Positions 17,949 to 56,408 of a stretch of DNA of 64,000 nt are shown piece by piece. The translations under genes and the position numbers were made by a program. This DNA is from a virus: positions 91,523 to 155,522 of IMG/VR virus record IMGVR_UViG_3300045988_125846. One strand, written 5' to 3'. The notes beneath the pieces are model-generated. The model did not search any database, was not told the DNA's origin, and saw nothing but the letters and a program-made list of their open reading frames with translations. How positions within the stretch are numbered: position 1 is the first letter of the stretch; every line of letters begins with the position of its first letter.

Positions 17949-17969
17949 TTCTAAGGTGGTGAAAATATA

Positions 17970-18644: not shown

Positions 18645-18651
18645 ATATTTG

Positions 18652-18683: not shown

Positions 18684-18687
18684 GTAT

Positions 18688-18771: not shown

Positions 18772-18936
18772 CTTTTGATGTTTCTGTGAATGGAAACAGG
18801 GAATAGATATATGTGCTCATGATTAGTGTCATAGCTGATTGTGGGATTTATGATGAATATATAAAAATGCGACAAGAAGCGGTTAGTTAATGATACTACT
18901 GCTTCTTTTTTGTTATATGAAAGGAAGTGAGATTTA

Positions 18937-19971
18937 ATGGGTAGAAAAATACAGCATAACAATATTGTTACTGATGAGTTATTGGCTCAGTGCAATAAAG
19001 AGAATATAAAGTTAGGAAATGACTTTTTGGATTATCTTCGTTCAGTTGATAGATCCCCAAATACAATCAATGCGTATAGGCGTGACCTTTTTATTTTTTG
19101 GGTTTATCTGCTTCAGCATTGTGACAACAAATTCTTTATTGATTTATCTAAGAGGGATATTGCTCATTATCAGAGTTTTTGCCTTACTGAATATAAATGG
19201 TCGCCAGCTAGAATGCGTAGAGTAAAATCTACTCTTTCTTCTCTTTCAAATTATGTGGAAGCTATATTGGACGATGAGTATGAAAATTTTAAACCGATTA
19301 TACGCAAGATTGAAAATCCTGCAAATGAGAAAGTATTTACTAAAACTGTATTATCCGATGAACAAGTACAGGGTATGCTTGATTTTTGGGTTGAAAAAGG
19401 TAAATATGACAAGGCTTGTATTTTAGCATTAGCTGCATTTAGTGGCAGACGTAAGAGTGAGTTACCACGATTTAAAGTATCTTATTTCGATGATGAAAAT
19501 ATTATATACGGTTCTTTATATAAAACACCTGAAAAGATTCAAACAAAGGGAAGAGGCTCTAGGGGCAAAATGTTGACGGTATATACACTTGCAAAACCGT
19601 TTAAGCCATATTTTGATTTGTGGATGAATTATAGAAAAGAACACGGAATTGAATCAGAATGGTTATTTCCAAAGAAAGTAAATGGAGAATATATAGATGA
19701 ACCTATGGATTCAAGCACTCTTGACAGTTGGGCTGATACATTTAGTAAGCATTTAGGAGAAGACTTTTATTTTCACAGTCTTCGTCACTTCTTTACAACT
19801 TCTTGTTCTCGAAGCGGTCTTCCTGATGATGTAATTCAAATGCTAGTTGGTTGGAGTTCGCTAGATATGGTATCAGTGTACAAAGATATTGACGCTGATG
19901 AGCAATTTGCAAAATATTTTGCTGATGGAGAAATAAAACAAGTAGAACAAAAATCACTTTCTGATTTGTAG
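18937..19971 (+). CDS. tyrosine recombinase / phage integrase
   Basis: SAM-like N-terminal domain; catalytic-domain motifs ...AFSGRRKSEL..., HSLRHFFTT, LVGWSSLDMVSVY. Confidence 0.85.
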   Translation: MGRKIQHNNIVTDELLAQCNKENIKLGNDFLDYLRSVDRSPNTINAYRRDLFIFWVYLLQHCDNKFFIDLSKRDIAHYQSFCLTEYKWSPARMRRVKSTLSSLSNYVEAILDDEYENFKPIIRKIENPANEKVFTKTVLSDEQVQGMLDFWVEKGKYDKACILALAAFSGRRKSELPRFKVSYFDDENIIYGSLYKTPEKIQTKGRGSRGKMLTVYTLAKPFKPYFDLWMNYRKEHGIESEWLFPKKVNGEYIDEPMDSSTLDSWADTFSKHLGEDFYFHSLRHFFTTSCSRSGLPDDVIQMLVGWSSLDMVSVYKDIDADEQFAKYFADGEIKQVEQKSLSDL

Positions 19972-20227
19972 ACAATCCCGATGAAACTTTTGTCTAACAT
20001 TATTTTTCCACTATCAGCCATAGAAATGTTCGTGCTTCTCTGCGTTAATGAGAACCTTAATTGTCGGATGAGAGACAATAAACCTTATCAACTGGTCTTT
20101 GCTCCGAAGACTGAAAATATGTGGAGAATAATCAATAAGCATGAATGGATTGCGAAAGTTTTCTAATTTAAAACTGCATGTGTACAGTGCAATATCAGCT
20201 AGTTAGTGCTTTATGCTGATTATACTT

Positions 20228-20299
20228 GGCTCTATAGTATAAAGGTAATTATATCCGACTGTCTATCAGAAGATTTGGGTTCGATTCCCAATAGAGTCG
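20228..20299 (+). tRNA. tRNA-Asp (GUC)
   Basis: Acceptor GGCTCTA/TAGAGTC, T arm TTGGG-TTCGATT-CCCAA, anticodon loop CTGTCTA. The anticodon stem has one C.A mismatch. Confidence 0.65.
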
Positions 20300-20301
20300 C
20301 T

Positions 20302-20375
20302 GTGTTAGTAGCTTAGTAGGTTAAAGCGTCAGATTGTGGTTCTGAATATCGTGGGTTCAAATCCCACCTAACACC
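20302..20375 (+). tRNA. tRNA-His (GUG)
   Basis: Acceptor GTGTTAG/CTAACAC, D arm GCTT..AAGC, anticodon arm TCAGA-TTGTGGT-TCTGA, T arm GTGGG-TTCAAAT-CCCAC. Confidence 0.85.
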
Positions 20376-20424
20376 TAATGATTAAAAGGAAAACGAAAAA
20401 ATAAAAGAAAGGAGTGTACATACA

Positions 20425-20718
20425 ATGGCAAGTAGATTATCTATTGAAAATGATAGATTAAAAGTCGGTCAAGTAAAACGAGTAACATCGAATAATGGAA
20501 ATAAAATTGATTCTATTACTCTTCTGCTTAATGAATCTGTGGAAGTTTTATTTGCACCAAATGGAAATACATTGGAATTTACGGTATCAAATCCAAATAT
20601 TGATATGAGCAATTTGGACTGTACTATTGATAAAGAGACTTTAAGGGACTTAGTAATCAGTTTCAAAGATGCTTATAATCAGATAATTTCAAACGAAAGT
20701 GAGGGGACAAATTCATGA
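20425..20718 (+). CDS. hypothetical protein (97 aa)
   Basis: RBS AAAGGAG upstream; overlaps the next gene (ATGA). Confidence 0.5.
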   Translation: MASRLSIENDRLKVGQVKRVTSNNGNKIDSITLLLNESVEVLFAPNGNTLEFTVSNPNIDMSNLDCTIDKETLRDLVISFKDAYNQIISNESEGTNS

Positions 20719-21188
20719 AATTAGATCAGAAATTTAATGTAGAAAATGACATCGCAAGTGTAGATATTACTGTTACAAGTCTTGGCACTGCTGATTTGAC
20801 AAGTGAGCAGGAAAAAGAATTACTTGCAAATTACAATAAGTATATCGAGTATAGTAAAATACAGTTCAAGGGAAATATCAAGCTTAATAATGGTGTTCCA
20901 GAAGTAACAACAGATCCAAAAGACGATTCTACTATTGTTGAATTGGAGATTACGGATGTAACAAATGAGAGAAAACTTGTCAATGAAGATTTAGCATTTC
21001 ATTTTGAAAGAGATGTAACAAAATATCCTGATACAGTATTAAATACTGTTCTTGATAAGAAGGAACTGTATGCACAGGCTCAGTGTGTATTATTTGCTAC
21101 AAAAGTTAAGGAAGCTGTTACTGAGAAGTTAGCTGAAATTCGTGCGTTGAATAATACTTTCGAAGGAACTACAGAATATACTCTGTAA
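20715..21188 (+). CDS. hypothetical protein (157 aa)
   Basis: Translationally coupled to the previous ORF. Confidence 0.5.
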   Translation: MKLDQKFNVENDIASVDITVTSLGTADLTSEQEKELLANYNKYIEYSKIQFKGNIKLNNGVPEVTTDPKDDSTIVELEITDVTNERKLVNEDLAFHFERDVTKYPDTVLNTVLDKKELYAQAQCVLFATKVKEAVTEKLAEIRALNNTFEGTTEYTL

Positions 21189-21222
21189 AAAATAATGGGT
21201 GGTACTCTTCCACCCTAAATAT

Positions 21223-21293
21223 GGGGCATTAGTCAAAAGGTAAGACAATGGATTTTCATTCCATGAGTATCGGTTCGAGTCCGTTATGCCCTA
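21223..21293 (+). tRNA. tRNA-Glu (UUC)
   Basis: Acceptor GGGGCAT/ATGCCCT, anticodon arm ATGGA-TTTTCAT-TCCAT, T loop TTCGAGT. Confidence 0.75.
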
Positions 21294-21484
21294 TTTTTTA
21301 TGCGGTAAGCCTGATGTGAAAGCTTATCTTTTGGATGCATACGAAATTTAGTGTGTAAGTTCAACACTTACTACCGCCCTATGCCCTTTGCGGTCTTCGG
21401 ACTGGTACTGTTGTAACAATAGGATACGTCCTATGCAGTTTAGATGAAAGCTCGCCATTCGAGGATGGAATGAGAAAGGCAATA

Positions 21485-22153
21485 TCATTTTGGAATTTTA
21501 TCAAATATCAATTTTCTTAACTTGAGTTGATATTTATCATAATGAGATTCCCAATCAAATTCTTTTGTATTATCTAAGATATCTTGTTTGAGATTTTTGA
21601 GTTGTTGTTTATCTGTTTTATGCTTCATGATAATCGGTAATTCGTTAATCTCGTTCTCATAAAATAAAATGGTTGCAATAATACAATTCTTATTGGCAAA
21701 CAACGCAACTAATTCTTGTTTTGTACCCAATACAATTTCAGCCATACCTACTACTCTATTCGTAGTCATAGCTTTACGAAGAAGTTCATATTCGATTTCT
21801 GACTCCATTTCAGGAATTAAATAATATGATTTATCTATGAGTAGGTCTGATATTTCTTTTGATTTACAGAAATATTTTATTGAAAGTGTTCTATCTTTGT
21901 TTGATGTAATTGATTCTATATCATATTGTTCCAAAATAACATACTTATCTTCTGCATATTTATATCCTTTTACAATATCTTCATTGTGGATTTCTTTATT
22001 ACAAGATGGACAAAATTTGATATAACGCACTCTTTCTTTGGAGTCTTTGCAGAGTTGATTAAGTTCTATAGAACTGTTGTGTGATGTTTTTAACATTTTT
22101 ACGGGAATATATAAATCTTTGAATTGAATTGCAGTTTTATATGAAGCGTTCAT
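21485..22153 (-). CDS. ku: Ku-like DNA end-binding protein
   Basis: The N-terminus (YKTAIQFKDLYIPVKMLKTS...IELNQLCKDSKERVRYIKFCPSCNKEI..EDIVKGYKY..DKYVIL) parallels bacterial Ku (AISFGLVNIPVKLY...RIRYKRVC..CGKEV..EDIVKGYEY). Confidence 0.8.
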   Translation of the reverse strand: MNASYKTAIQFKDLYIPVKMLKTSHNSSIELNQLCKDSKERVRYIKFCPSCNKEIHNEDIVKGYKYAEDKYVILEQYDIESITSNKDRTLSIKYFCKSKEISDLLIDKSYYLIPEMESEIEYELLRKAMTTNRVVGMAEIVLGTKQELVALFANKNCIIATILFYENEINELPIIMKHKTDKQQLKNLKQDILDNTKEFDWESHYDKYQLKLRKLIFDKIPK

Positions 22154-22211
22154 GATAGTTTCTCCTTAGATACTTTTGGTTTAGTATATGGAGAAATTTG
22201 AAAAATATTAT

Positions 22212-22285
22212 CTGGATATAGGACAATTTGGTAGTCCGCTAGTTTTGGGAACTAGACGTTGTAGGTTCGAGTCCTACTATCCAGA
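22212..22285 (+). tRNA. tRNA-Pro (UGG)
   Basis: Acceptor CTGGATA/TATCCAG, D arm GGAC..GTCC, anticodon arm CTAGT-TTTGGGA-ACTAG, T arm GTAGG-TTCGAGT-CCTAC. Confidence 0.85.
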
Positions 22286-22378
22286 CTACTGCTCTATACA
22301 GTTATAACCGGTTTGGCGACTGATTGGTAAATATTGGAAGAAAGAGTCATTTCCTTTGGAGTGGCACTTTTATTATAT

Positions 22379-22451
22379 ACACCTTTAGCTTAATTGGTAG
22401 AGCAACGATCTCCAAAATCGTCAGGTCTATGTTCGAATCGTAGAAGGTGTG
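22379..22451 (+). tRNA. tRNA-Trp (CCA)
   Basis: Acceptor ACACCTT/AAGGTGT, anticodon arm ACGAT-CTCCAAA-ATCGT, T arm CTATG-TTCGAAT-CGTAG. Confidence 0.85.
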
Positions 22452-22555
22452 CTAAGTGAAGTGAACTAAATTGTCAAAACATTCAAAATATTTGTACAAA
22501 TGGTTTTATATACAAAAAATAGAGAGTATTGTCAACTCTCCATTTAATTATACTA

Positions 22556-41814: not shown

Positions 41815-42237
41815 ATGGGATTAAATAAAGACACTATTAAATATTTGGGAAAACAGGCTCAGAAAAAAGCTTCTGAATTAGCACATGAAGCTCAACAGAG
41901 ATTAACAGATGGTTACGTGTCATTTATTGATTTATATTATAGCGATTACACGCCACAACAATATGTAAGAACGCATAACTTATATAGATCTTATAACAAA
42001 TTTTATAAAAATAGCCACGGTACTATTTTTTATGGTGGTGTAGAAGTAACACCTGAAAGAATGTTTGATAACTATGATCAAATCACACCTTCAGATCTTA
42101 TGTCAGATTTTATTTACAATCCAAAAGGTACTTATCATGGTTGGTATAACATTCCTGCTAGTTTCAGTGTGTATAGAGAAATGCATAAGTATCATGAACG
42201 ATTAAAGGATGAGTATAGAAAACGTTGCACAATTTAG
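41815..42237 (+). CDS. hypothetical protein upstream of the tape-measure gene (140 aa)
   Basis: RBS GGAGGTGAG. Assigned by position only. Confidence 0.4.
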   Translation: MGLNKDTIKYLGKQAQKKASELAHEAQQRLTDGYVSFIDLYYSDYTPQQYVRTHNLYRSYNKFYKNSHGTIFYGGVEVTPERMFDNYDQITPSDLMSDFIYNPKGTYHGWYNIPASFSVYREMHKYHERLKDEYRKRCTI

Positions 42238-42251
42238 AAAGGATGTGAATT

Positions 42252-43981
42252 ATGGCAAGTTCAGATATTATCAAGATTGGTTTTGATTACAGATCCAGTC
42301 TTGCACAATTTGAAAAAGATACAAATGGTGTATTTGACGGAATTAGTTCTAAGGCTGGTAAACAGAAAATTACAATTCAGTTAGATGCAAAAGATGATAA
42401 GGTAATTGATAAAATTAAGGAATTACAGAAACTTAAATTAGATAAATTCACATTCGAGTTTGGTAATTCTGGATTAAAAGAACAGTTACAAACATTTGAC
42501 AAATTAGAGAATAAGATAAATGAGATTATTAATTTATCAAAAGGAATTGGAAACTCTTCTGCTCCTATTGTTGATGTTAATAAATCGTCAAAGGAAATTG
42601 ATAAACTAGAGAATAAAATCTCAGAATTAAATAAGAAATATGACGAATTACAAAAGAAATCTGCTACTGGCGGTATTTCTGGTAAAGAAGTTAATCTTGT
42701 TGACAATGATGAATTTAAGAAATTATCACAAGAAGTATCTGAATTAAAAGATCAGTTTGATGATTTAAAAACTCATATGAGTTTACTTGACGATTATACT
42801 GTTCCTACTGATAGATTCTTTGAACTTCAAACGCAAGTTGAGGCTACATCTGTCAAGGTTTCTAATTTAGTTGATGAAATGACCAGATTATCCAATGTTC
42901 AGAAAAATATTGGGGTTGAAACGAATATTTCATCTACTTCTACAGAATCTGTTACCAATTCCATCAAAGAAGAGAATAATGTATTAGAACAGAACACTCA
43001 GAAAGTTAAGGAAAATACACAGGCAAAAAAACAGAATGCAAATGTAAATCTTAATAAGTATGATAAACGGTTAGATTCATATAACGGCAAAATTGACAAA
43101 TATAAAACAACTATTGACAGATTTAATGATGGTGGTTGGACAAGTAGTACATATTTAGAAAATGTACAGGCTGTCAAGAATGCTGTTAAAGAGTATGAAA
43201 CTCTGCTTAATGAATTAAAGGGTAAAGATGCTAGTTTGGTGACGAGTGATGATATCAACCGATTAGATAACTATGAAAAGAAAATCAAAGATACTATCGC
43301 TACTGTTACCAATATGTCGGCTTCTGAGAAGGGATATAACTTTGTTTCAGGTCAGAAAGAATTAGACAAGATTCATAAGCTTCTCAATGAAAATAGCAAG
43401 ATGTCTTCTGAGGCAAAAGCTAAGATTAAAGCTTACTATGCGGAAATTGAAAGTGGTAATCCTAGCATGAGTCTTGACAAGATTCATGGTGAAATCTTAA
43501 AGATTTATAATGCCGAAGTCGAAGCTGGTCGTGCTGGCAGAACATTGTTTGACACTTTAAAGAATAGCGGATTCCATCAAATTGCTGCACAGATGGCAGG
43601 AATGGTTGGTGTTTATGATGTTATTAATGTAATCAAGCAAGCTGCGTCTACTGTGACTGAGTTGAATACACAGATTACAGAACTTGCGAAAGTATCTGAA
43701 CAGTCATCAAAACAGATTTATGCCGACTTTGACAGTTATGCAGATATTGCAAAAGAAGTCAGAGGTACAATTTCTGATACTATTGCTGCCACTGCGGATT
43801 GGTCTAAAAATGGATATAGTATTCCAGACGCTAAACAATTAGCAGAAATCTCACAGCTTTATAAAAATGTTGGTGATGGAATTGACATTGATACAGCTAA
43901 CGAGTCACTTATCTCAACCTTAAAAGGTTTTCAGCTTGAAGCAGATCAAGCAGAACACATTGTAGACGTATTTAATGAGGT
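42252..43981 (+). CDS. tail tape-measure protein, exon 1
   Basis: Coiled-coil N-terminus, then the TMP core ...ADWSKNGYSIPDAKQLAEISQLYKNVGDGI...AEHIVDVFNEV. The frame decays after 43981. Confidence 0.8.
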
Positions 43982-44129
43982 AGACTTACTTGCCTCCTAT
44001 TACAGTAATGTAATAGCTTTATGCATTTACATGCATATTGACAGTAACTATATAGGTTAAAGTCCTGAGAAGGATAAGACCTAGGAAAGATTGCAATATT
44101 ATTTTTCATATATGGGGATATATGAATGA

Positions 44130-44300
44130 ATGGAAAAAATTAAAATTAAAAATAAACGATTAGCAAAGTATCTATATTCTCTTGGATTTGATCGAGAATG
44201 TGGATTTGACAAAAATGAATATTGGTTATTTTCGAAATCAAGTGAATTAGATGAGGCACTTGATTTTTATTTTTATATGAGAAAGAAAAACAGAGAATAA
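44130..44300 (+). CDS. 56-aa intron-internal small ORF
   Basis: MEKIKIKNKRLAKYLYSLGFDRE...; below the track cutoff; function unknown. Confidence 0.35.
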   Translation: MEKIKIKNKRLAKYLYSLGFDRECGFDKNEYWLFSKSSELDEALDFYFYMRKKNRE

Positions 44301-44322
44301 CTAATAATAAGGAGATGTTATT

Positions 44323-45519
44323 ATGACAAAAGAAGATTATATAAAATTAGACAATGATACAAAAATAATGTGTAATGATTGTGGTAAGATTTTACATAAA
44401 GAATACTTTTCGTGCAAAAATATTTTTAAAAATCTAACCGGAAGATGTTGTGTATGTGATTGGATAAAGAGACATAATGGTGTTCCGCTTATAGAAGGAT
44501 TTACTCAAGATCAAATACATAAAACACTTGAATTTATTCTTTATAATAAATCTGCTTATATAAACGATTTGGCAAAATATTTAAATATTGATTTAGATGA
44601 TTCAATGGAGCTTTTTCGTAGATTAAAAATTGGTAATAGAAAAATGAGAATCTTGTCTAATTGTGATTATTGTGGAAGACAAATAGAAGATTTTTTAAGT
44701 ACAAACAAAATTAATTCACATAATTATTGTTCAAGAGAATGTTATTGGAAACATAAGAAAATTATAATAGGAAAAGGTAAAAATAATAAACAATACAATA
44801 GAATAAAAGTATTATGTACGAATTGTGGAAAAGAAATGGAAATTATTCCATATGATTATAACAAAGTAAATTCAAAAGGTGACAATCACAACTTTTGCTC
44901 ACAAGAATGTTATTGGGAATTTCGTAAGAGATATTATGTAGGCGAAAATGGAGCAATGTATAACTATAAATTTTCAGATGAACAAAAAGAACATTCAAGA
45001 ACAAAATTATTAGAACGGTTAAAAAATGATAATAGACTAGAAACAGGAATTCAATTAAAAGTCAATTCTATGCTGGATAACTTAAATATTAAATATGAAA
45101 GAGAAAAAGTGTTTGATTATTATGCTGTTGATAATTATATTCCTACATATAATGGTATCATTGAAGTAATGGGTGATTATTGGCACGTTTCTCCATTACG
45201 TTATAATGAAGAAAAATATTTTATGAATGAGATGCAACAAAAACAACTACATAGAGATAAAATAAAATATTCTTATATTATAAATCATTATAAAATTCCT
45301 ATTTTATATTTGTGGGAAACAGATATAAACAATAATCCAAATCTTTGTATTAAATTAATTGATAAATATATACAAAATGGTAAAATTCTTGAAAATTATC
45401 ATTCTTTCAATTGGCAATTAGAAAACGACACTTTATCTATTAAGGAAGATATTATTATCCCTTATCAAAATATATCTGTTAATGAATACAGGCATTTAAT
45501 TAAAAAGAAAGTAGGATAA
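44323..45519 (+). CDS. intron-encoded homing endonuclease: Zn fingers + Vsr-like (PD-(D/E)xK, EDxHD-type) nuclease
   Basis: Several CxxC...CxxxC(Y)W modules. The C-terminus IEVMGDYWH...LHRDKIK...IPILYLWETD parallels Vsr FVHGCFWH...RD...VLIVWE. Confidence 0.65.
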   Translation: MTKEDYIKLDNDTKIMCNDCGKILHKEYFSCKNIFKNLTGRCCVCDWIKRHNGVPLIEGFTQDQIHKTLEFILYNKSAYINDLAKYLNIDLDDSMELFRRLKIGNRKMRILSNCDYCGRQIEDFLSTNKINSHNYCSRECYWKHKKIIIGKGKNNKQYNRIKVLCTNCGKEMEIIPYDYNKVNSKGDNHNFCSQECYWEFRKRYYVGENGAMYNYKFSDEQKEHSRTKLLERLKNDNRLETGIQLKVNSMLDNLNIKYEREKVFDYYAVDNYIPTYNGIIEVMGDYWHVSPLRYNEEKYFMNEMQQKQLHRDKIKYSYIINHYKIPILYLWETDINNNPNLCIKLIDKYIQNGKILENYHSFNWQLENDTLSIKEDIIIPYQNISVNEYRHLIKKKVG

Positions 45520-45748
45520 TCCCCAATCCATAAAATAATATTGCAAAATCCTTAACGACTGCGGTGGAGTATATAGTAATATATATTCCGAAGTTACTCT
45601 CCTACTCTACTATTTTTAGAAGAAAGAGGATGAATATACAGTCTGACCTCACGAAATAATCTAACAGCGAAACGTGAGACATAGCTAGAAATGACTATGC
45701 GCCATAGAAATATGGTCAGTAGGCTTACAACCGAAAGTAACAGATGTG

Positions 45749-46483
45749 AAGTAATAACGAAGCTATATCAAGCGGAGGCATAGGCGAAGCCCTTCAGCGT
45801 TCTGCCGCTTCATTTAACGCTGCTTCCACCTCACTTGAAAAGTCAGTTTCGCTCGTAACGGCAACGAACTCAGTTTTGCAGAACCCAGAAAAGGTTGGAA
45901 ATATGTGGCGTACAGTTTCAGCCAGATTGCGTGGATCAGAAACAGAGCTTAAAGAGATGGGCGAAGACACAGATGGTCTTGTAACTTCTACATCAAAACT
46001 ACAAGCACTTGTAAAAGGAATTACAGGTTTTGATATTATGAAGGACAAAGATACTTATAAGGATATATATGATATTGTCCTTGGTATTGGAGAAAAATGG
46101 AAGGATCTTAGTGACATTGATCGTGCTTCGCTTTTAGAGGCTTTGGCAGGTAAGCAGCAAAGTAATGCCCTAGCTGCCGCCCTTAGTAATATTGATATCC
46201 TTAAGAAGAGCTACGAAGAAGCAACACATGCAGAAGGTTCAGCTCGTGAGGAAAATGAAGAATATAGTAAATCAATTCGGGCTTCAATTGACTTAGCTCA
46301 GGCAAAGTTGGAACAGCTTGCGAATGACACTTTAAATTCGAATTTCCTTAAAGGTGCAATTGACGCAGGTGGAAAATTAATTGAAGTTTTAGATGGTATT
46401 GTAAAAAGTGGTAATGCAATACCTACTTTATTAGCTGCTATTGGAGCAGGTCTTAGTTTTAAAAACATCGGTAAATGTTACGT
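45749..46483 (+). CDS. tail tape-measure protein, exon 2
   Basis: Frame open from 45750: SNNEAISSGGIGEALQRSAASFNAA...VLQNPEKVGNMWRTVSARLRG... (conserved TMP core), ending in the hydrophobic AIPTLLAAIGAGLSFKNIGKCYV. Confidence 0.75.
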
Positions 46484-47341
46484 GAGTGCGTAATTTTTCA
46501 AATTATTGTTATTGTTTTGAATATGCCCACCTAACTCAAGACAACAATCAAGAGTTGGGAAGATTAGGTCTAGTCAACCTATAGATGTTTCAAAATAAAT
46601 CGTAATTGTGAGTTGCTATCTCACAGTGCTGGGAAGAAATAAAATATACCGTATATATAAAATAACACACTACAACGTGGCTAGAAATGGCGAACGTGAA
46701 TGTATTCCGAAAGGATGTTGGTAACAACAAGAAAAGTCAAATCCAGAAATGGAGGTTATTTGGGTATATGGGGAAACCCTAAGTATCATGTCCTTAATGG
46801 ACTAAATCGGCAATCAGCAACGGATTCTATTGTAATAGAGAATATTATAGTGGAGGTGTTCAGAGAGTCTAAACGATTTTGAGTTATTACAAAATAGCTT
46901 GTAAAAGGGACTCCATACGTAGTTATCGCACTACTCTCGTGACTGAGATATAAAAGCGTAAAAGAGTGTTGCTACTCTAACCCTATTAAATAGCACATTG
47001 TTAATAGGACAACAGCAGGGTTCGTGTGTACCGTAAGTTTGAAGAAACACACAAAACCAAGAATTCTTGATTTCAATCGAGTAAAATAGAGAATAATAAA
47101 ATAGCACCACAAGTTGCTGTTCTTGTAGTGCTAATGTCTTTGAGATTATTGAAAATCAAAGACTCCCTATATTGTAACATTGGGGTAGTACATAAAAATA
47201 AAATTGGTTGTATGTACAAATTTATTGTATCAAACATCAATGATTATTTCAACAGTAAAAAGAGAATAAATAAAATGAGGACTGTCGTGATGACCAGCCC
47301 TTGTATATAAAGTGATATAATATTCCCTCACTAGATATCAA

Positions 47342-47419
47342 TTAAAACTTAAGTACAGCAACAAAAACCGTAAGTGCAATTACAAGCCTTGTTAAACTGT
47401 CTATGTTGATATTCAACAT
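47342..47419 (-). CDS. 25-aa hydrophobic peptide (type I toxin-like)
   Basis: GGAGGTG lies 5 nt before the ATG. MLNINIDSLTRLVIALTVFVAVLKF. Confidence 0.35.
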   Translation of the reverse strand: MLNINIDSLTRLVIALTVFVAVLKF

Positions 47420-47742
47420 ATTCACACCTCCTTTTAATATGCATGTAATAAACACACATATCCAAATAGATATGTTTATACATATACTAGAAGAGTGAAC
47501 TTAAGACCTAGTAAATAGCGACCGTAACTGATATCTAGTTCCCATTTCGCACTGTTTTCAGTGCATCCACCTCAAAGCTTATTGTACCACTTTACCATAA
47601 TTTTACAATCCAGAACGTAAGTTTGTCGAATAATGCAGAAAGAAAAATATTCAAATTTTGAATAATTCTATTTACAAAATTTTACAATTATGCTATTGTG
47701 AAAATATAAAAATTTTTGCATTTTTTGAAGGAGGCAAACTGG

Positions 47743-48753
47743 ATGGAAGATATTAAAACAAGTCCGAAAAGTTTAAGATCGTTGGTTGGTGAAATCAATA
47801 AGGGAAAATATAATTTTGACTTACCAATTCAACGTAGAGCTGGTATTTGGAAACCAAAAGAGAAGTCATTGTTTATTGATACTTTGTTAAGAAACTACCC
47901 TATTTACCCTGCACTTGTGAATAAACACAGTGACACAAAAGAGATTGATGTAGTTGATTTTAAGCAACGTTTTACTACAATCGCAGCCTTTGCTAATGAC
48001 GAATTTAAATTATCAAAGAATTTAAAACCATTAACAATTGATGGGACTGAATACGAAATCGCAGGAAAGAAATTTTCTAAGCTTGACGAAGCTGTTCAGT
48101 CAAGATTTAATGACAGAGATATTTCTATTATAACAATGACAGATGCAACCGAAGAAGAAATTGTTGATATTTTTGAAAGAATAAATATGGGACACCAACT
48201 TTCAAACGGACAGAAAAGAAGCACTATTGAAAGCAATGAAGTTAGAAAAATTATTTACTCTATTGCTGATCATCCATTCTTTGAAAAAGTTTTATCTCCT
48301 GCTCAGTTTAAAAAGAACCTTGACAGAGATATTGTTATTCAATGTTTAATGCTTACAGAAAAGACAGATAAAAACAATTTTACTTCATTTAGAGATGTAG
48401 ATATGAATAAATTTATTATGTATTATAATGATAAGATTGCAGATCCAAATGAAAAACAATTTGCAGAAAAGAAAATTGAAAATCTGCGCAAAGCATTAGA
48501 TAAGTTGAATGAAGAACTTCCAGAAGATGTAAAAATAAAAGCAAGTACAATTCCAATGTGCATTTATGGAATGTACCGTATGGTTAGAGATTCTAAATCT
48601 ACTTCTAAATATATGGAATGGTTGAACAAATTTTTAGCATCATATGATACGAACTTGGATTATTTGCAATACTGCTCTAATGGAACATCTAATAGCGATA
48701 TGGTAAATGGACGATTGCAGTTCTTTAAAGATGCTATAAAGGAAATTGGATAA
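47743..48753 (+). CDS. DUF262 (ParB-like NTPase/nuclease superfamily, GmrSD N-terminal type) protein
   Basis: Start moved to the ATG after AGGAGG. FDLPIQRRAGIWKPKEKSLFIDTLLRNYPIYP and VVDFKQRFTTI (DGQQR-like) motifs. No DUF1524/HNH half. Confidence 0.6.
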   Translation: MEDIKTSPKSLRSLVGEINKGKYNFDLPIQRRAGIWKPKEKSLFIDTLLRNYPIYPALVNKHSDTKEIDVVDFKQRFTTIAAFANDEFKLSKNLKPLTIDGTEYEIAGKKFSKLDEAVQSRFNDRDISIITMTDATEEEIVDIFERINMGHQLSNGQKRSTIESNEVRKIIYSIADHPFFEKVLSPAQFKKNLDRDIVIQCLMLTEKTDKNNFTSFRDVDMNKFIMYYNDKIADPNEKQFAEKKIENLRKALDKLNEELPEDVKIKASTIPMCIYGMYRMVRDSKSTSKYMEWLNKFLASYDTNLDYLQYCSNGTSNSDMVNGRLQFFKDAIKEIG

Positions 48754-48760
48754 AAGATAA

Positions 48761-48788
48761 AGAGTAGTCGATTGACTACTCTTTTAAT
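48761..48788. terminator. bidirectional terminator between convergent genes
   Basis: 9-bp stem AGAGTAGTC/GACTACTCT with loop GATT; A/T runs on both sides. Confidence 0.65.
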
Positions 48789-48808
48789 ATGTATGTGTTT
48801 TATTAAAT

Positions 48809-49381
48809 TTATGGGTTACAAACACTACAAGGTTCATATCCTTCTGCTATAGCATCGTTTATATCAATTGCAATTTTACTATTCCATAAATATCTACATC
48901 CATCTTTATGATATTTTGAGCCATTTTCGGTGATATAAACTGTATATGTATTATTTTCTTCAGAATAATCATTATTATAATAATCACTGTCATAATAAGC
49001 ATCTTCATATGATTTATAAGATTCTATTTGTTTTTTAAGATCAGAAATTGTATCATCTTTTTCGTCAAGAAGCTTATTTAGATCATCTATTGTAGATTGT
49101 TTGTCTTTTAAATTAGACAGTTGCTTATCCTTTTCGTTTAATTTTATTTCTAATCCAATTCTATTGTTTGTTAATTCTTTTATTCTGGACAAATATTCAT
49201 TGTTTTTTGATTTTAAATTCGATTTTTCTTTTTGTAACTTTGAATTTTTTGATTTAAGTTCAATTATTTGATTATTTTCTGAATTTAATTCGTATAAAGA
49301 GTAAATATCTGTACCAGTTAATATAGTGATAATTAAAAGTAGAAAAATTACAAGCTTCTTTTCTTTTGTGAATTTTTTCAT
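48809..49381 (-). CDS. membrane-anchored coiled-coil protein with a C-terminal Cys/His metal-binding motif
   Basis: N-terminal TM segment, long Lys/Glu/Asn coiled coil, C-terminus GSKYHKDGCRYL...GYEPCSVCNP. Confidence 0.55.
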   Translation of the reverse strand: MKKFTKEKKLVIFLLLIITILTGTDIYSLYELNSENNQIIELKSKNSKLQKEKSNLKSKNNEYLSRIKELTNNRIGLEIKLNEKDKQLSNLKDKQSTIDDLNKLLDEKDDTISDLKKQIESYKSYEDAYYDSDYYNNDYSEENNTYTVYITENGSKYHKDGCRYLWNSKIAIDINDAIAEGYEPCSVCNP

Positions 49382-49532
49382 AATTAAAACTTCCTTATAA
49401 CTGTTGAAATAAATATATCTAAAAAGAGAATATATAAATATGAGGATAACATAATGTCATCCTCATACCATTGTGCACCGTGTTACACTAAACACTCAAA
49501 TTTTCTAGCAGAAATTAAAATAATTATGTAAG

Positions 49533-49706
49533 TTATTTGCGTTTAATTTTGAACCAGAGATGTTTGCCAGCATGTAGTTCAAAATACTTTACACTTCTTA
49601 CAACATTGCAAGCTAATAATATCGCAATTATTGCAAGTAAGGTAAACGCAAAGGCAATTGCGATCGTGCAAAAACACGAAAGCAAAATTGTAAAAATCTG
49701 TTCCAT
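49533..49706 (-). CDS. 57-aa membrane protein
   Basis: GGGAGGTGAG RBS. One long hydrophobic stretch then a basic tail. Preferred over track ORFs 49537-49731(+) and 49579-49887(-). Confidence 0.5.
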   Translation of the reverse strand: MEQIFTILLSCFCTIAIAFAFTLLAIIAILLACNVVRSVKYFELHAGKHLWFKIKRK

Positions 49707-49915
49707 ATCTCACCTCCCTTCTGATTATTAAGTAATCGTCTGGGGAAGTTATATGGGACAGAACGTCCAGAATTGTATAAACTTCTGATGTGAATACACC
49801 TTCGCTTTCTATGGTTCTAAGCCATTGGTGTATGGTTAATGAGTTACATCTGTATATATACAGGTTAAATTTATTGTAGCACAGCATTACATATTATGAT
49901 AGTCTGAACATATGT

Positions 49916-50386
49916 TTACCATTTTGCTCCACAATTTTTACAGTGCATTGTGTTTCTTACATCTGAACTGAACAATCCAAATATTACACCGCCAAATATT
50001 TTCTTACCAGTTGAAATCTTTTCTACATTAAGTGAGCCACAGGTAGGGCATTTTGGCATGTTCTTACCACCATTGCGAAAAGCTGTTTTAACATCCGCAC
50101 CTTGACGTATTGCATCACCGATAGCCATATCTCGTTCATATTCGGCAGATTTTTGTGCTTTGATTCTGTCTCGATTATTAAAGAGATATTCATCAAATTC
50201 TGGTGAAGATTTTATGCACTCTTCTATGAATTGGTCTTTTTTGTTTTCATTCAAATTATTTTTATAAATTTTTCCATTATATAGTAATAGATATTCTTCA
50301 GGAACTTCATATGTTATAGAGTTGCAAATGTCACATTTTTTTGAATCTATAATTGTTCTTCCACATTTTTTACAATACATTAACAT
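49916..50386 (-). CDS. double zinc-ribbon protein (156 aa)
   Basis: Start moved to MLMYCKKCG... after GGAGGTG. CKKCG..CDIC at the N-terminus, CPTCGS...CKNCG at the C-terminus, with a hydrophobic segment between. Confidence 0.55.
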   Translation of the reverse strand: MLMYCKKCGRTIIDSKKCDICNSITYEVPEEYLLLYNGKIYKNNLNENKKDQFIEECIKSSPEFDEYLFNNRDRIKAQKSAEYERDMAIGDAIRQGADVKTAFRNGGKNMPKCPTCGSLNVEKISTGKKIFGGVIFGLFSSDVRNTMHCKNCGAKW

Positions 50387-50467
50387 GATGACACACCTCC
50401 AATTTATGAAAATTGTATCACATATAATAAAATTCAACAAGTCCTCAAACAACTTGTAATAAAATAG

Positions 50468-53400
50468 TATGATATTCAAAACATTTGACAGTGATAAAGA
50501 TACATTTTCATCGAAATTTGGAATATTGGGGAAATCATTTGAAGATATTGGGAATAGATTTAAAAAAGTTTCTGATGAATTAATTGTGACAAATGATTAT
50601 ACAATATCTAATATTGCAAATGCGTGGAGAAATTCTTCCGTTAAGAAAGACTTAAGTGATAAATTTATTATTACTAAATCTGATATACAAGATAAATTAA
50701 AAGATCTTTCTGTTTATGAAAAAAATCCGCAAGGTATTTTAGATAATCTATTGGAACAAAAAGAATTAGTTGATTCTAATCAGTCTAGTTGGCAAAAATA
50801 CTTTGAAGGATTATCAGAAGGTGAAAAATGGCAAACAAAATTCGTTCAAGAAAATGACTTGACCAAAGTATCTCTTGATGATGTAAAAAATGCTCAGAAT
50901 GCAGCAAAACAGTCTGCTATTGCTTACAATAATGGATTAGAGCAAATGACCATTAGTGCTAAAACTGCTAACATTGCTTTAGAAGGATTAAAGATGGCAG
51001 CAAATATGATTGTTGGTATGCTTGTCGCAGAAGGCATCAAACTGGCTATCACAGCAATAGATAACTGGATTCATCGTGTAGAAAAAGCAAATGACGCAAT
51101 GGATGAAGCTGTAAGTAAGTATGATTCTGCTAAAACAGCATTAAAAGATACAACCTCTCAATTAGAAGAACAAAATAAACGTATTGATGAACTCAATAAA
51201 AAAGATAAACTCACATACGTTGAACAGGAAGAATTAGACAAATTAAAAGAAGCTACTCGACAGTTAGAACTTCAAAAAAATATTGAAGAAAAAGAGAAGG
51301 CTAATTCTGCACGAGAGGCGGCAGATAAAACAGTAACTGCATTTAATAAACAATATGGGAAAGGTGATATTGATAAAAATGCGGTTGATACTCAACTTGC
51401 TCAGTCAAAAGCAACTGGTGTATTTCAGGAAGCTCGAAACAGCGATGATATTGTTGGCAATTTAGCATCTTTTGAATATTATACGGAGCAGATGGAAAAG
51501 ACACAAAAGAGATATAACAAAGCCTTGAAATCTGGTTCTAAGGATGATATTAAGTATTATGAAGAGAATTTACAAGATTATATTGATACTGTAGATGAAT
51601 ATACAACATCATTAAATAATAATATTGAAGATCTCACAAAGAAGAAGAACAATCTTCAAGATGCCTATGATAATGCTGTCAAAAAGAAGTCTAATGGAGA
51701 ATCTTTGTCTTCCGATGAAAAAAATACAATTTCAAAATATCAAGAAATTGCAGACATAATTAAGTTAATCTACTCTTACACTGACGAAGCAGGATGGAAT
51801 AATTCTCAGATTTCAGAAATTTTCAATACAAACGGAATTGAAAAATCAAAAGAAGATCTTCAACAATTGGCACAAGAAGGTAAGCTTACAGAGGAAGAAT
51901 TACAAAAATATCCTAACCTCATAAATGCGATTAATAGCGCAGAGTTTTTAGGAGAAAAAGATTCTAATCTTAAAGTTTTCTGTAATGATTTGAACGCTGG
52001 TGTAGATGCCATTGAAGATACGGGTAATGCTGCTGATTCTGCTACCCCATCTATCGCTTCTTTTGACGAAGCATGGCTCAATCTCAAAAATACAGACAAC
52101 TCAGATTTAAAAGGTGCGGCAGATGACCTTCTTGACCTTGCAAATGCAGGACAATTAACAGGAAACGCACTTGAAAGTTTGGCTGGTGGTCAGCAGTTGA
52201 TGAATGAAACAGGTTTATCAGCAGAGGCACTTGCACAAAAAATTAACGGTCTTGTAAACGCTTCTACACAACTCTCTTCTATGTCTGCACAGATTTCTAA
52301 GATGTCTGATATGCTTGCTGACAAGAAGAATGGTACAGTTGCATCCGCTTCTGATTTAGCAGGATTTGATGTTTCAGTCCGTGGTCTTGAATCTTGGGAT
52401 AAGTTTGAAGAGGTAATGGGTAGTTCTGAATCTAGCATGGATCAGTGCCAGAAAGCTGCCAATGCTCTTGCTACTGAATGGGTAAACGATGGCAATTTCT
52501 TGGCAAACCTTACTGATGAAAACAAACAGTATTATATCACTCAGCTTGAAGATATGGGTGTTAAAAATGCCGAGCAAATTGTAACAGAGGCTTTGACAAA
52601 AAAGGAAGAAGAACTTAGATTTGAAAAACTTCTTTCTGCCGATGCATCCACAGATTTGCAAAATGCCACAGTTGCTGATATTCTTAAACTTCAAAATCTT
52701 GGTGATATTACAGAACAGGAAAAAGCAAAACTTGCAGCTTTCACATTAGAAAAACAGTATTGTAACAAAAACACTATTGTAACTGATGCAGATTGTCAAA
52801 ATATTTACACTCTTGCTAAAATGGCTGGCGCAGGTACAGAAGCTTTAAATAAACTTGCAGCATTAAAACAAAGACTATCAGACAATCCAATTATGTCTAA
52901 TGAAATGCGCAACAATATTAACAGTGCAATTCAAGGCATTGTAAATGGTGTAACAACTTCTGCTGGTGCAAAGTTAGATATACCACAAGTGAAAGTAAAT
53001 TCTTCTGGTTCATCAAGTTATAAATCTCCGTCATCAAAAAAATCAAAATCTAAATCAAAAACAAAGTCTGACGCTGCCGAAGTATTTGATTTTATTGAGA
53101 TTAAACTTAACAATCTTACAGACAAGGCTTCAAAAGCAAAGGATAAAATTGATGATCTTCTCACATTTGGTCAGAAGAAAAATCAAACCAAAAAAGCTAT
53201 TGAAGCTACTACCAAAGCTATTACTGCACAGGAAAAAGCATACAAGAAATACATGGCATATGCCAATAAAGCTGCGAAAACACAGAACAGTAAAAAGACA
53301 ACTTCTTCATCCTCCTCATCTTCTTCAGGTGGAAACGCTGTATATGATACTGCTACAGATTATCTTGGGCTGAAATATGTTTGGGGTGGAGCAAGTCTTA

Positions 53401-56400
53401 CGAAAGGTGCTGACTGTTCTGGATTTACACAGCAGATTTATAAGAAGTTTGGTGTAAGTTTACCACATCATGCGGCTGACCAGGCTAAGATGGGAACAAA
53501 AATCACATCGAAGAAAAATTTGCAAGCTGGTGACTTAGTATTCTTTGGTAGTAAGAGCAACATCACACATGTAGGTATTTATGGTGGAGACGATAAGTTT
53601 ATTGAATCCCCTCATACTGGTGCATCTGTAAGAGTTTCCAAGCTTTCATCTCGTAAGGATTTTGTATCTGGTTCACGTTTTAGTGGAATAAGTGGTTCTA
53701 CAAAGACAAGCGGAAAGAATGTAAAAAAGGTCAAAGGTGTATCATCCAAGACACTTGAACATTATAAGAGACTTATCCGTGAAGGAACACTTGGTTCAGA
53801 TGGTATTGCTTCTATTAAGAATGAAAACCTGAAAAATGCATTAAAGGATTATCAGACCTATTATGAGAAAGCAAAAGCTTGTAAGGAACAAGTTGCCAGT
53901 CTTACGGATCAATTAAAGGATTTATATGAGACTTTAGCGAACAACCCGGTTGACAATGCTTCTGATAAGATTGAAAAACTTGGAACTAAGATGGATATTC
54001 TGAATGCCAAGGTAGGTAATCTTACATTTAATCCAACAAAGAAAATCAGTACATCTGACATTGATGATTTGTATAAACAGATTATTAAGAACTACGATAG
54101 TCAGTTGTCAGCTTCAAAAACTGCTTATACTGGTGCAACAAAGAGTTATAAATCCAATAAGAGTTCTCTTACAAAGTCTCTTAAAAAAACAAAAGCTAAA
54201 AACATTGGTCTTACTCAAAAGGAATTTAATTCTATTAAGAGTAATTTAAAATCCAATAAGTCAATTTCGTATAATCTTATTAACAAGATTGAAAATGACA
54301 GTCTTAGGGAAAAGTGCATAGCACATAATGAATATCTTCTTGCAAAGAATACCGCAACTGATAATTATAATCAGGCTAAAGAGGATCACACTTCTAATGT
54401 GCGTCAGGTTAGAAAAGACCGCTTTGATGATGTACAGGAACGGTACGACAATAAAGCTGGGCTGATTGAGCAGAGAAAGAACGCTGTCTCCAATTCTCTT
54501 AATATAGCTGAAGCAAAAGGTCAGTTGATTGGTGAGGCTTACTATACACGTCAGGCAAATGCTGTCAAATCTGACATGAAGCTTAAACAAGAAGAAGCTG
54601 GAAAACTTGCAAAGAAATTATCTACAATTAAGTTTGGCAGTAATGAATGGTATGAAGCGCAAGAAGCTTTAAATGGTGTCTATGAAGCCATTCAACAGGA
54701 CGAACAGGAACTTGCAGAGTTTCAAAAATCTATCAATGAGTTGAAGTTTGACCGTTTTGACGAGTTACTTAATAAGCTTGGAGACATCACAGACGAGACG
54801 GATTTCTTAATTGATATGCTTGATTCTGACAATCTGTTTGACAGTGATACAGGAATGATTACGCAGGATGGCATTACTGCTATGGGATTGACTGCACAGA
54901 ATTATGATACATATCTTGCGGAGGCTCAAAAGTACAAAGATGCTATTGCTGATCTGAATGAGATGTATAATAGTGGAAAAATTGGTCTTACTGATTATAA
55001 CTCTAAACTTCGTGAATATCAGCAAGGTCAACGTGATTCTATTAAGTCCGCAAATGAAGCGAAGAAGTCGTTAGTTGCTTATGTAAAGCAAGGATTAGAT
55101 GCGCAGAATGATGCTTTGGAAGAAGCAATTTCGAAGAAAAAGGAATTGTTAGAAACAGAGAAGGACTTAAAGGATTTTCAGGATAAGATTGCTGATCAAA
55201 ACAAGAACATTGCTAATTTGCGCAAGCAGATTGCGGCACTGGAAGGTGATTCATCAGAATCGAATCGTAAAAGGCTTCAGCAATTGAAATCCGATTTGAA
55301 AGATGCCGAAAAAGAACAGTCAGATACTTTGTACGATCGTTCCGTATCCGACCAAGAAAAAGCTCTCGATGATATGCTCACCAAGAGTAAAGAGTCTGCC
55401 GAAAGTTATTTAAAGGATACCAATAAGGTATTCTCTGATGCTCTCACATATGTTAATGCTAACTCTTCACAGGTTGCATCAAACATTGAGAAAATTGCAA
55501 AGGATACTGGATATGATGTATCTACTTATATTGTGAATGCTTGGAAAGACGGTGGAAACGCTGTAGGCGATTATGCAAGCACATTATCGTCTAACGTATC
55601 TGGTATTACAGCACAACTTAGTTTGATTGCATCTTCATGGCAATCTATTTGTGATGCTGCTGACAGAGCCGCTGAAGCAAGTGCCAAGTATGCAGAGACA
55701 AAAGTTACAGACACACAAGGCATTGGATCGCCAAACGATTCAGGAACTTCAAGCGGAAACGGTTCTGTTTCTTCTGGAAGTAATGATGATGACAAGCAAC
55801 AGGAATTGAATAAACTCAGAAAGAAAGCAAATGATATTACAGAATGGATATCTAAGCATTCAGTATCGGCAACACACAAGAAATCGTATTACGGTGCTCT
55901 TAATCAGTACCTTTATGAGAAACAGCATAAACAAGTTCTAAGTAAGGCTAATGAAGTTGCTCTTGCGAAGAAACTTGGTGTATCTGTAAAAAGTGATTTG
56001 TCTGGTAAAAACGATAGAGAGAAAATTACTTCAGCTCTCAAGAAACTTATAAAAGACGCTTCGTTCTCAACTGGCGGTGTGATTAAGGATCTTGTTAAAC
56101 TTTCTGGTGAAGATGGTATTAGTTTCTTACAACGTGGCGAAGCTGTACTTTCTAAGGAACAGACACAAGCATTGTTGAATTTTAAGCCTGTTATTCCACA
56201 GATTAACTCTATTATTGGCAATCTGAAGAACATTCCAGAGAAAGTTTCATCACAATCTCCTACTTATCAAATCGACAACAGAACTATTGTTGAAGGTGTC
56301 GCTACAGACCAGATTGTTAAACAAATGGAAGGTGTTGCTCAGAAACAGGCTGAAAATGTTGTAAGAAAGATCAACCAAGCAACTTATGCCAAAGGTGTAA

Positions 56401-56408
56401 GAAAATAA
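50468..56408 (+). CDS. tail tape-measure protein, exon 3 (with an embedded NlpC/P60 peptidase domain)
   Basis: No RBS before the ATG at 50469. Long coiled-coil protein. YLGLKYVWGGASLTKGADCSGF...GDLVFF...HVGIYGG at about 53.35-53.68 kb. Confidence 0.75.

Follow-up and report, generated by a model that had tools for sequence, protein, structure and literature searches.

A 3,999-nucleotide sequence that interrupts the tape-measure gene of a phage is probably a group I intron, in which a 5' ribozyme is followed by a cargo bay of separate gene cassettes related to conflict, and which is spliced out as a whole. The element occupies positions 46473–50471 of the 64,000-nucleotide stretch of IMG/VR virus record IMGVR_UViG_3300045988_125846 that was analysed (the window; positions 91,523 to 155,522 of that record). 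A sequence-only reading of this region had described five open reading frames (ORFs), encoding a 25-residue hydrophobic peptide, a 336-residue DUF262 protein, a 190-residue membrane-anchored protein, a 57-residue membrane protein and a 156-residue double zinc-ribbon protein, and had placed them in a ribozyme inside a tail gene. All five ORFs, with their features, are present in the ORF list for 44000–54000, and a comparison of about 60 related loci (handles beginning with L) bears out their location in a group I intron of the tape-measure gene through covariation at the splice sites and in the ribozyme core.

Three tape-measure pieces in the window are colinear with a single profile, phrog_4211 (profile positions 563–721, 765–946 and 957–2615), and joining 42252–43981, 45752–46472 and 50472–56408 yields an ORF of 2,795 amino acids with one terminal stop. 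Exon 2 (45752–46472, plus strand) ends with AAA AAC ATC GGT (KNIG), which places the 5' splice site after U46472, and exon 3 (50472–56408, plus strand) starts with 12 nucleotides, ATATTCAAAACA, that are complementary to 46513–46524 inside the intron. The tape-measure proteins of cultured phages (phiCD211, phiCDIF1296T and Bacillus SPbeta-like phages) span the second of the two junctions in a single alignment. An intein was considered and rejected, since the insert carries antisense genes and stops in all frames.

The boundaries of the element are defined by the relatives. Exon 2 homology ends in all of them right after AA(T/C)(G/A)T(C/A/G)GG(T/C), past which at least four unrelated sequence types are found. 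Each type carries, 40–60 nucleotides downstream of exon 2, the motif TTTGAAT(A/G)T-(G/A)CC(G/C/T)AC, the 3' half of which pairs with the last six bases of exon 2, with a U.G wobble at the junction, and the 5' half of which pairs with the first nine bases of exon 3. These guide pairings, P1 and P10, were tabulated for 23 loci. P1 covaries with the exon (GTCGGT/GCCGAC, GTAGGT/GCCTAC and GTCGGC/ACCGAC, the last with C.A replacing U.G) and is paired at 6/6 positions in most relatives, and P10 covaries with exon 3 (ATATTCAAA/TTTGAATAT versus ACATTCAAA/TTTGAATGT; the change is seen in L001 and L044). In the window, P10 reaches 12 base pairs between 46513–46524 (TGTTTTGAATAT) and 50472–50483, and the P1 guide strand, GCC, follows at 46525–46527 (both on the plus strand).

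At the 3' boundary, exon 3 always follows AGTA(T/C)G, the G of which is invariant in more than 20 loci. In the window this omega-G (50471, plus strand) is the last base of the intron and at the same time the G of an apparent ATG. About half of the loci (L002, L007, L014/15, L023, L024, L039–43 and L062) read ACG at this apparent start codon, and no Shine-Dalgarno sequence or other ribosome-binding site precedes exon 3 in any locus compared; independent translation of exon 3 is therefore not credible. A reading of the AGTATG motif as a promoter or as the start of a leaderless mRNA was rejected as well, because ACG is as common there as ATG. Furthermore, L027 and L028 are without the insertion that L026 carries at the corresponding site, and read CATGGT^GCAGTA, fused after the U and after the G (the caret marks the junction); the guide sequence of L026, GTACTGC, pairs with GCAGTAC. 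For the window, splicing would give the RNA junction AACATCGGT^ATATTCAAAACA, for which AAAAACATCGGT^ATATTCAAAACATTTGAC would be the diagnostic read, and the predicted junction peptide of the tape-measure protein is SFKNIGIFKTFDSDK.

The first ~580 nucleotides of the intron (46473–47050, plus strand) correspond to the ribozyme, with a core that extends to ~46950. The classical P (gtgctgggaag), Q (aatcagcaacgg), R (gttcagagagtctaaacg) and S (gggactcc) elements all lie within the first ~480 nucleotides. A hand-built P1–P9 structure with the P3/P7 pseudoknot order comprises, on the plus strand, P2 (46530–37/46552–59), P3 (46597–603/46873–79), P4 (46627–31/46815–19), P5 (46649–56/46764–71), P6 (46824–28/46839–43), P7 (46865–69/46909–13), P8 (46881–88/46893–900) and P9 (46919–23/46930–34). 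On alignment A1, which combines the window type with the 71%-identical L017 and so holds two independent lineages only, 96.4% of cells are paired, and 14 pairs of the core show compensatory changes (three in P3, two each in P7 and P9, one in P8), against at most two in controls with slid partners. Close to the other end lies a terminal hairpin, ACAAGT-CCTCAAACA-ACTTGT (50437–50457, plus strand), which ends 14 nucleotides before the 3' splice site. Across relatives its stem has six base pairs, its CAAAC loop is invariant and its distance from the 3' splice site is 8–17 nucleotides; 14 distinct versions were compared, with 98.8% of cells paired and covariation at 6/6 pairs. Beyond P10, no long-range helix closing the cargo loop was found in the window.

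Two distinct classes of ribozyme sequence, differing over the first ~500 nucleotides, share one tape-measure site and one guide sequence. They divide L001, L002, L010, L039 and L044 from the window, L017, L020, L021, L026 and L032. Class 1 is marked by the canonical elements GTTCAGAGACTA...TAGTCC, class 2 by GCAGGGAAGCC...CCCTCACTG...GGTAGATAAGATGGAAC. Some relatives also carry an inverted second copy of the intron end on the minus strand (L007, ~11600–11660; L008; L039–L043, ~7215–7290), consisting of the hairpin with its CCTCAAACA loop, then CCTATAGTATG, then ~14 nucleotides of the exon 3 start, upstream of an 81-residue antisense gene just past the ribozyme. On the pre-mRNA this copy would complement the true 3' splice-site region, and it may be a helix that closes the cargo loop, a decoy or a recombination scar. 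In L044, two motifs resembling a 3' splice site (hairpin followed by AGTA(C/T)G^ATATT(C/T)AAAACATTTGAC) stand 1.9 kb apart in the same bay, at 12829 and 14708, each with an antisense gene before it; the doubling suggests that intron copies recombined and that the bay grew as a result.

From the ribozyme to the terminal hairpin and the final G, the cargo bay measures ~3.4 kb. Its five genes had been proposed as a single co-inherited module; judged by comparison with close relatives, they are instead separate cassettes that are shuffled between them. The closest relative, L047, a prophage in a 680-kb contig, has a ribozyme 99% identical and DUF262 and zinc-ribbon genes 97.5% identical to those of the window, yet is without 47235–47578, which holds the 25-residue gene, and carries a 176-residue gene and a DUF6173 gene in place of 48795–49896. 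L006 and L023 share an exon 2 that is 100% identical to that of the window and ribozymes that are 99.7% and 97.6% identical, and their DUF262 alleles are ~35% identical to the one in the window. The cassette of the 57-residue gene (49421–49917) is found again in L014 at 88.8% nucleotide identity. The 190-residue gene recurs in the tape-measure intron bays of L061 (99%) and L062 (92%), and L062 keeps the window order of DUF262, 190-residue and 57-residue genes. On these comparative grounds, the bay is shown to be a recombination hotspot whose contents vary between near-identical phages.

An inventory of the introns of 16 relatives (2.0–6.7 kb; 200 ORFs of at least 45 amino acids, falling in ~110 clusters) contains only two widely recurring residents. 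The zinc-ribbon gene is present in 12 of the 16 bays, always antisense and adjoining the 3' splice site, and also occurs in other lineages; the DUF262 gene is present in seven, always sense and first past the ribozyme. The other cargo in these neighbourhoods is shuffled. The sequence-only reading had named a lack of co-occurrence as evidence against its module; DUF262 and zinc-ribbon genes do occur together, as in part do the 190-residue and 57-residue genes (L062), and this co-occurrence reflects shared residence in one hotspot rather than an operon. Further lineages, found through DUF262 homologues of 58–64% identity, have bays of up to 9 kb and share the order of tape-measure N part, DUF262-containing bay, antisense zinc-ribbon gene and tape-measure C part. 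Hundreds of phage contigs from gut and oral metagenomes, belonging to several lineages, have the arrangement.

Known conflict genes occupy the same slot in relatives, as judged by Pfam and PADLOC searches with about 30 of their cargo proteins. These include ToxN/AbiQ (2.7e-42 and 3e-21), MazF/PemK (4e-20) and an NYN nuclease matching HEC-09 (1.2e-15). In the tape-measure intron bay of L024 (12548–13213), a perfect 34-nucleotide tandem repeat (2.4 copies) lies directly upstream of ToxN, which together make up a complete type III toxin-antitoxin system (ToxIN/AbiQ). The P0096 lineage has an island of more than 10 kb following the tape-measure N part, with RnlA/RnlB and CI-like repressors among its contents. 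Further cargo comprises DUF3800, DUF3825, DUF2513, GNAT, Peptidase_M78, ORF6N/C and DUF6173 proteins. The bay of L002 contains an IS21 element (13592–15921; IstA with rve and Mu-transposase C domains, and IstB), so the bay tolerates transposon insertion. Conserved flanks, variable cargo and known defence genes in relatives make the bay a phage accessory/defence hotspot, and because the window genes hold the same position, they are in the company of abortive-infection and toxin genes. Thus, the earlier proposal of a candidate defence module stands in part: the slot houses AbiQ/ToxIN, MazF and the HEC-09 NYN nuclease in relatives, with RnlAB nearby, but the idea of one module fails for the five genes. 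From their position, the DUF262 and other cargo genes of the window may plausibly serve in defence or exclusion. None of the five matches a virion or replication family, as had been proposed.

The DUF262 protein (47743–48753, plus strand) matches Pfam GmrSD_N over residues 17–155 only (6.4e-15). In an alignment of 35 homologues, Q30, R31, W36, D72, Q75, R76, R146 and N148 are invariant; all three DUF262 motifs are therefore intact, including the QR...W (Q30-R31...W36) and D..QR (D72..Q75-R76) motifs recognised by the sequence-only reading. Its close subfamily has F in place of G in D(G/F)xQR. The PADLOC profile for NsnA matches over the full length (1.1e-34; residues 3–335 against profile positions 45–382 of 385), and further matches are to PD-T4-2_A (PADLOC, 5.4e-14) and phrog_2598 (3.2e-41). 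An AlphaFold2 (AF2) model, with a predicted local distance difference test (pLDDT) score of 90, has an all-helical C-terminal half, and Foldseek ranks BrxU, a GmrSD-family enzyme, first (3.6e-5), followed by ParB/Noc CTPases and SspE. A profile of the family searched against the PDB matched BrxU only (E=0.02), and PDB sequence searches with the three larger cargo proteins gave nothing useful. No DUF1524 or other nuclease domain was found in the C-terminal half by Pfam, AF2 or Foldseek. The structural and PADLOC checks that had been suggested point to an NsnA-like protein, with a predicted ParB-DUF262 domain and a helical C-terminal domain.

NsnA is the proposed DNA sensor of the three-gene Menshen system (PMC12065111). 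In common with NsnA, GmrSD/BrxU and PD-T4-2 component A, the window protein keeps the QRxxxW, D(G/F)xQR and FxRxN motifs; it resembles NsnA along the whole profile and in its helical 'ParBDB'-like C-terminal domain, and BrxU is its best structural match. Unlike the Menshen and GmrSD proteins, it is solitary and phage-encoded, with no NsnB, NsnC or DUF1524 partner in the bay, in agreement with its earlier description as an orphan. A homologue at 41% identity adjoins an integrase, outside the tape-measure gene, and DUF262 is therefore a general accessory gene of SPbeta-like phages.

The other four genes lie on the minus strand. The 190-residue protein (48809–49381) has an N-terminal hydrophobic anchor, coiled-coil matches (DivIC and others) and a C-terminal Cys/His (Ada-like) mini-domain, SKYHKDGC...EPCSVCNP, which ends many secreted or anchored Firmicute proteins; its carriers include secreted nucleases and peptidoglycan-binding, SLH and other envelope proteins. 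The 57-residue protein (49533–49706) consists of one hydrophobic helix and a basic tail, resembles type I toxins, and is 68–79% conserved in L014, L015 and L062. A 102-residue ORF that overlaps its gene (49579–49887) is without support and probably spurious. Between the stop of the zinc-ribbon gene and the 57-residue gene lies a 209-nucleotide leader (49707–49915), 88.8% identical in L014 and containing the palindrome CTGTATATATACAG, which could be a regulatory or antitoxin RNA. The zinc-ribbon protein (49916–50386), whose gene adjoins the 3' splice site, has two CxxC...CxxC ribbons and 870 homologues and belongs to no Pfam family; its AF2 model (pLDDT 75) has no meaningful fold match. The 25-residue peptide gene (47342–47419) has the ribosome-binding site AAGGAGGTG and its own promoter- and terminator-like sites, and its homologues at the same bay position are hydrophobic and 62% (L001) or 48% (L014/15) identical. 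Both small ORFs are real genes, as diverged homologues at the same positions keep the hydrophobic pattern. No antisense RNA antitoxin gene was identified for either peptide, Rfam matches being at chance level, and an NCBIfam search returned nothing.

Promoter and terminator scans of the bay predict at least four separate transcription units with host-type signals: the 25-residue peptide gene, the DUF262 gene, the 190-residue gene, and the 57-residue and zinc-ribbon genes together. A left border (47051–47234) is 94–99% identical in L047, L048 and L051, even where the ribozyme differs, and contains a terminator-like hairpin (47102–47133, minus strand). A promoter-like site for the 25-residue gene lies at 47581–47608 (minus strand). 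The conserved region upstream of the DUF262 gene (47579–47742, plus strand) holds a promoter-like site, TTTACA-17-TATTGT with TG (47671–47699, plus strand), and the palindrome ATTCAAATTTTGAAT (47649–47663). This region is 95–98% identical in L006, L020 and L023, where the DUF262 proteins downstream are ~35% identical, and looks like a conserved recombination border or an operator for allele swapping. A bidirectional terminator-like hairpin (48759–48784) between the convergent DUF262 and 190-residue genes is kept with the DUF262 cassette in L047, and a further terminator-like hairpin (49437–49469, minus strand) lies downstream of the 57-residue gene.

The source is an SPbeta-like and probably temperate phage. 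The window is a low-GC phage genome with its structural module on the plus strand and, upstream of it, eight tRNA genes at 13069–22452 (Asn, Lys, Tyr, Asp, His, Glu, Pro and Trp). A 922-residue protein (9396–12164) matches the eukaryotic-type RNA-dependent RNA polymerase family PF05183 (3.6e-12), a match to be expected of a YonO-like single-chain phage RNA polymerase. This polymerase, together with YomN/YomO/YonB/D/G matches in relatives, assigns the group as SPbeta-like. A megablast search of 42000–51500 against GenBank phages gave no match, and no tape-measure relatives were found in one-genome-per-species contigs, in which zinc-ribbon relatives point to Lachnospiraceae and Eubacterium metagenome-assembled genomes. 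In the cargo bay of L032 (12280–12406), a Fusobacteriales-1 RNA motif (RF02920, 73.5 bits, above the gathering score) is the only Rfam match besides tRNAs; it may hint at the host, and no more.

The first gap of the tape-measure gene (43982–45751) is an ordinary optional group I intron with a homing-endonuclease gene. Its 5' splice site follows U43981, its omega-G is 45751, and it holds a DUF5659 ORF (44130–44300) and a 398-residue HNH-like ORF (44323–45519). This gap is missing in most of 38 related IMG/VR loci, where the flanking exons abut. Other relatives carry homing-endonuclease introns elsewhere in exon 2, after residues ~38, ~50, ~60 and ~133, and the tape-measure gene is therefore an intron hotspot.

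Taken together, these features suggest how the larger element would work. In the lysogen or in early infection, each cassette would be transcribed from its own promoter by the host RNA polymerase. At the late stage, transcription by the YonO-like polymerase would run through the entire intron; YonO itself transcribes the whole late operon of SPbeta and, being highly processive, pauses little (PMC5467207). The 5' ribozyme would hold exon 2 via P1, and exon 3 would be captured across 3.4 kb by the unusually long 12-bp P10, the terminal hairpin and the omega-G. Splicing would then restore the tape-measure mRNA, to be translated into a single protein of 2,795 amino acids, and would thereby render a multi-kilobase insertion harmless within an essential gene. 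The DUF262 protein may serve as an NsnA-like sensor or binder of DNA, dependent on nucleoside triphosphates and without an effector. With the envelope-located 190-residue protein and the small hydrophobic peptides, it would most likely take part in conflict between phages or between phage and host (superinfection exclusion or defence) rather than in intron mobility.

Several observations weigh against this interpretation. P1 is weak in the window, with ATCGGT/GCCCAC paired at 4/6 positions, three of them contiguous (GGU/GCC, 46470–72/46525–27) and the fourth a U-A pair. Searches of IMG/VR and JGI metagenomes for an allele of the window's KNIG^IFK junction without the intron gave chance matches only, so that the splice junction of the window's own lineage is inferred rather than observed. 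The Rfam group I model, RF00028, is not matched at its gathering score in the window and seven relatives, and no group I or group II model is matched at E<=10 in 43500–51000. The RF00028 model is insensitive to introns of this kind, and since the hand-built structure covaries, the miss is ascribed to that insensitivity. The bay contains the terminator at 48759–48784, which is competent on the plus strand, and three or four antisense genes, which should hinder synthesis and folding of a 4-kb intron. As for the cargo, the NsnB ATPase and NsnC effector partners are absent from the ORFs of 46473–50471 (PADLOC, Pfam), NsnA-like sensors being known to act only with such partners, and PADLOC results for the remaining cargo amount at most to coiled-coil noise.

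The alternatives differ in which of these observations they accommodate. It is highly improbable that no splicing occurs and that an N part ending at 46493 and a C part starting with the ATG at 50469 are separately translated genes on either side of an ordinary intergenic moron island. The window does have this in-frame ATG and a stop at 46491–46493, gene callers annotate two genes everywhere, and Rfam finds no intron, but ACG stands at that codon in about half of the relatives, and a ribosome-binding site is missing in all. Additionally, the N-part tails past GGT are unrelated between intron types, an exact 12-nucleotide complement of exon 3 adjoins the complement of exon 2, with both covarying with the exons, and the intron-less L027 and L028 fuse the parts exactly at U^G. 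An intron that was once functional and has been crippled by its cargo, now residing in defective prophages or splicing with a trans-acting factor or in trans, is unlikely. It would account for the weak P1 of the window type, the internal terminators and antisense promoters, bays of up to 9 kb and the location of close relatives in contigs of 680–776 kb, which identifies them as prophages. However, the same intron type is kept with differing cargo in many independent contigs, among them IMG/VR viral contigs of 90–200 kb, the 2,795-residue frame is intact, and P10 and the terminal hairpin are conserved.

Only a small chance is given to an IStron-like chimera of ribozyme and transposon, or a descendant of one, with passenger genes as its cargo and a transposon end as its terminal hairpin. 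IStrons have the same architecture, with a 5' ribozyme, 3' cargo and a subterminal 3' hairpin (PMC4227781), they are known from Fusobacterium, Clostridium and C. botulinum phages, and an inverted second hairpin with a copy of the junction motif is found within some bays. Against this, no TnpA, TnpB or IS607 protein was found among the ~30 cargo proteins scanned, the sole insertion sequence being the IS21 of L002, and the element occupies one fixed site in one gene, with no dispersed copies. The view of the sequence-only reading, in which all five ORFs belong to a single defence or toxin system, is very unlikely: DUF262 and zinc-ribbon genes do stand together in many bays and L062 has the same DUF262, 190-residue and 57-residue order, but each gene has its own promoter and terminator signals, L047 swaps the 190-residue and 57-residue genes and is without the 25-residue segment, DUF262 alleles are replaced independently of their flanks, and a distant DUF262 homologue lies beside an integrase, outside the tape-measure gene. 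It is equally improbable that the DUF262 or zinc-ribbon protein is a mobility or maturation factor of the intron (a homing nuclease or maturase). The DUF262 gene is on the intron strand directly past the ribozyme, ParB-like domains include nucleases, and the zinc-ribbon gene, which abuts the 3' splice site, is found more constantly than any other resident. Yet neither protein has a recognisable nuclease motif or fold, the DUF262 gene is missing from 9 of the 16 bays, the intron is fixed in the window lineage, so that homing is not under selection, and it is the other tape-measure introns that house typical HNH-like homing genes.

A spliced intron with a bay of separate cassettes, the reading preferred here, has partial parallels among known systems. 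In IStrons (CdISt1, BcISt1, FnISt1 and others), ~1.5 kb of cargo lies between the group I core and the 3' splice site that it uses (PMC4227781). The tape-measure element shares with them a ribozyme compressed at the 5' end, coding cargo that sets the 3' splice site far from the core, a hairpin close to the 3' end, occurrence in low-GC Gram-positives, Fusobacteria and their phages, and splicing that renders the insertion harmless. IStrons, however, carry IS200/605 or IS607 transposons (TnpA/TnpB) of ~1.5 kb, encoded on the intron strand, and lie in dispersed copies, whereas the tape-measure element holds 2–9 kb of hypervariable accessory genes on both strands at a fixed site, with no transposase; Pfam detected no IS200/605 or IS607 transposase in the cargo of the window and ~30 cargo proteins of relatives. 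The span from ribozyme to 3' splice site, against ~1.5 kb in IStrons, is 3.4 kb in the window and ~9 kb elsewhere, with antisense genes in addition.

Group I introns in tape-measure genes are known, including one in Bacillus phage Moonbeam (PMC4299906). Phage introns with homing endonucleases resemble the present element in the class of host gene, the U/omega-G splice rules, the P1/P10 guide pairing and an ORF outside the core. The intron of T4 nrdD/sunY likewise has its ORF 3' of the core. Known introns of this kind carry one ORF, rarely two, encoding a sense-strand nuclease, in contrast to the 4–10 genes of the tape-measure bays, which are mostly non-nuclease, often antisense and equipped with their own promoters and terminators. 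The P2/P4 defence and accessory hotspots of temperate phages and satellites (PMC9122126) and morons are similar in their conserved flanks, variable cargo with AbiQ/ToxIN, MazF and RnlAB, and autonomous promoters and terminators inside a late operon. The known hotspots are intergenic, unlike the tape-measure bay, which lies inside an essential gene and is enclosed by a ribozyme. Full-text literature searches for cargo carried by introns, for defence hotspots located in them and for intronic DUF262 genes gave no precedent, consistent with the earlier impression that the arrangement is undescribed.

Phage genomes are tightly packed, and the known hotspots of defence and counter-defence are intergenic. 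In the present case, the interior of an essential structural gene appears to have been opened by a self-splicing RNA into a hypervariable slot of several kilobases that is transcribed in both directions, and the intron seems to be a safe storage site for conflict genes. A broader proposal, which we regard as possible but doubtful, is that the intron family is a dedicated, evolvable, ribozyme-bounded container for storing and exchanging multi-gene defence, toxin and exclusion cassettes, with exchange at the conserved ribozyme, promoter and 3'-hairpin borders. Under that proposal, antisense cargo transcription or cargo proteins could gate tape-measure splicing and virion production, and the family, besides founding a new class of defence island, would exceed all bacterial group I introns known so far in length and gene content. 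If splicing does take place, the cargo range of bacterial group I introns would extend from one homing nuclease or insertion sequence to 4–10 unrelated genes and ~9 kb, which raises the question of how a ribozyme reaches a 3' splice site several kilobases away, past terminators and antisense transcription. The succession of tape-measure N part, ribozyme, hairpin and AGTAYG^ATATTCAAA would then provide a rule for mining conflict genes, and the family would offer a natural set of solitary NsnA-like DUF262 proteins in which to ask what a sensor does without its Menshen partners.

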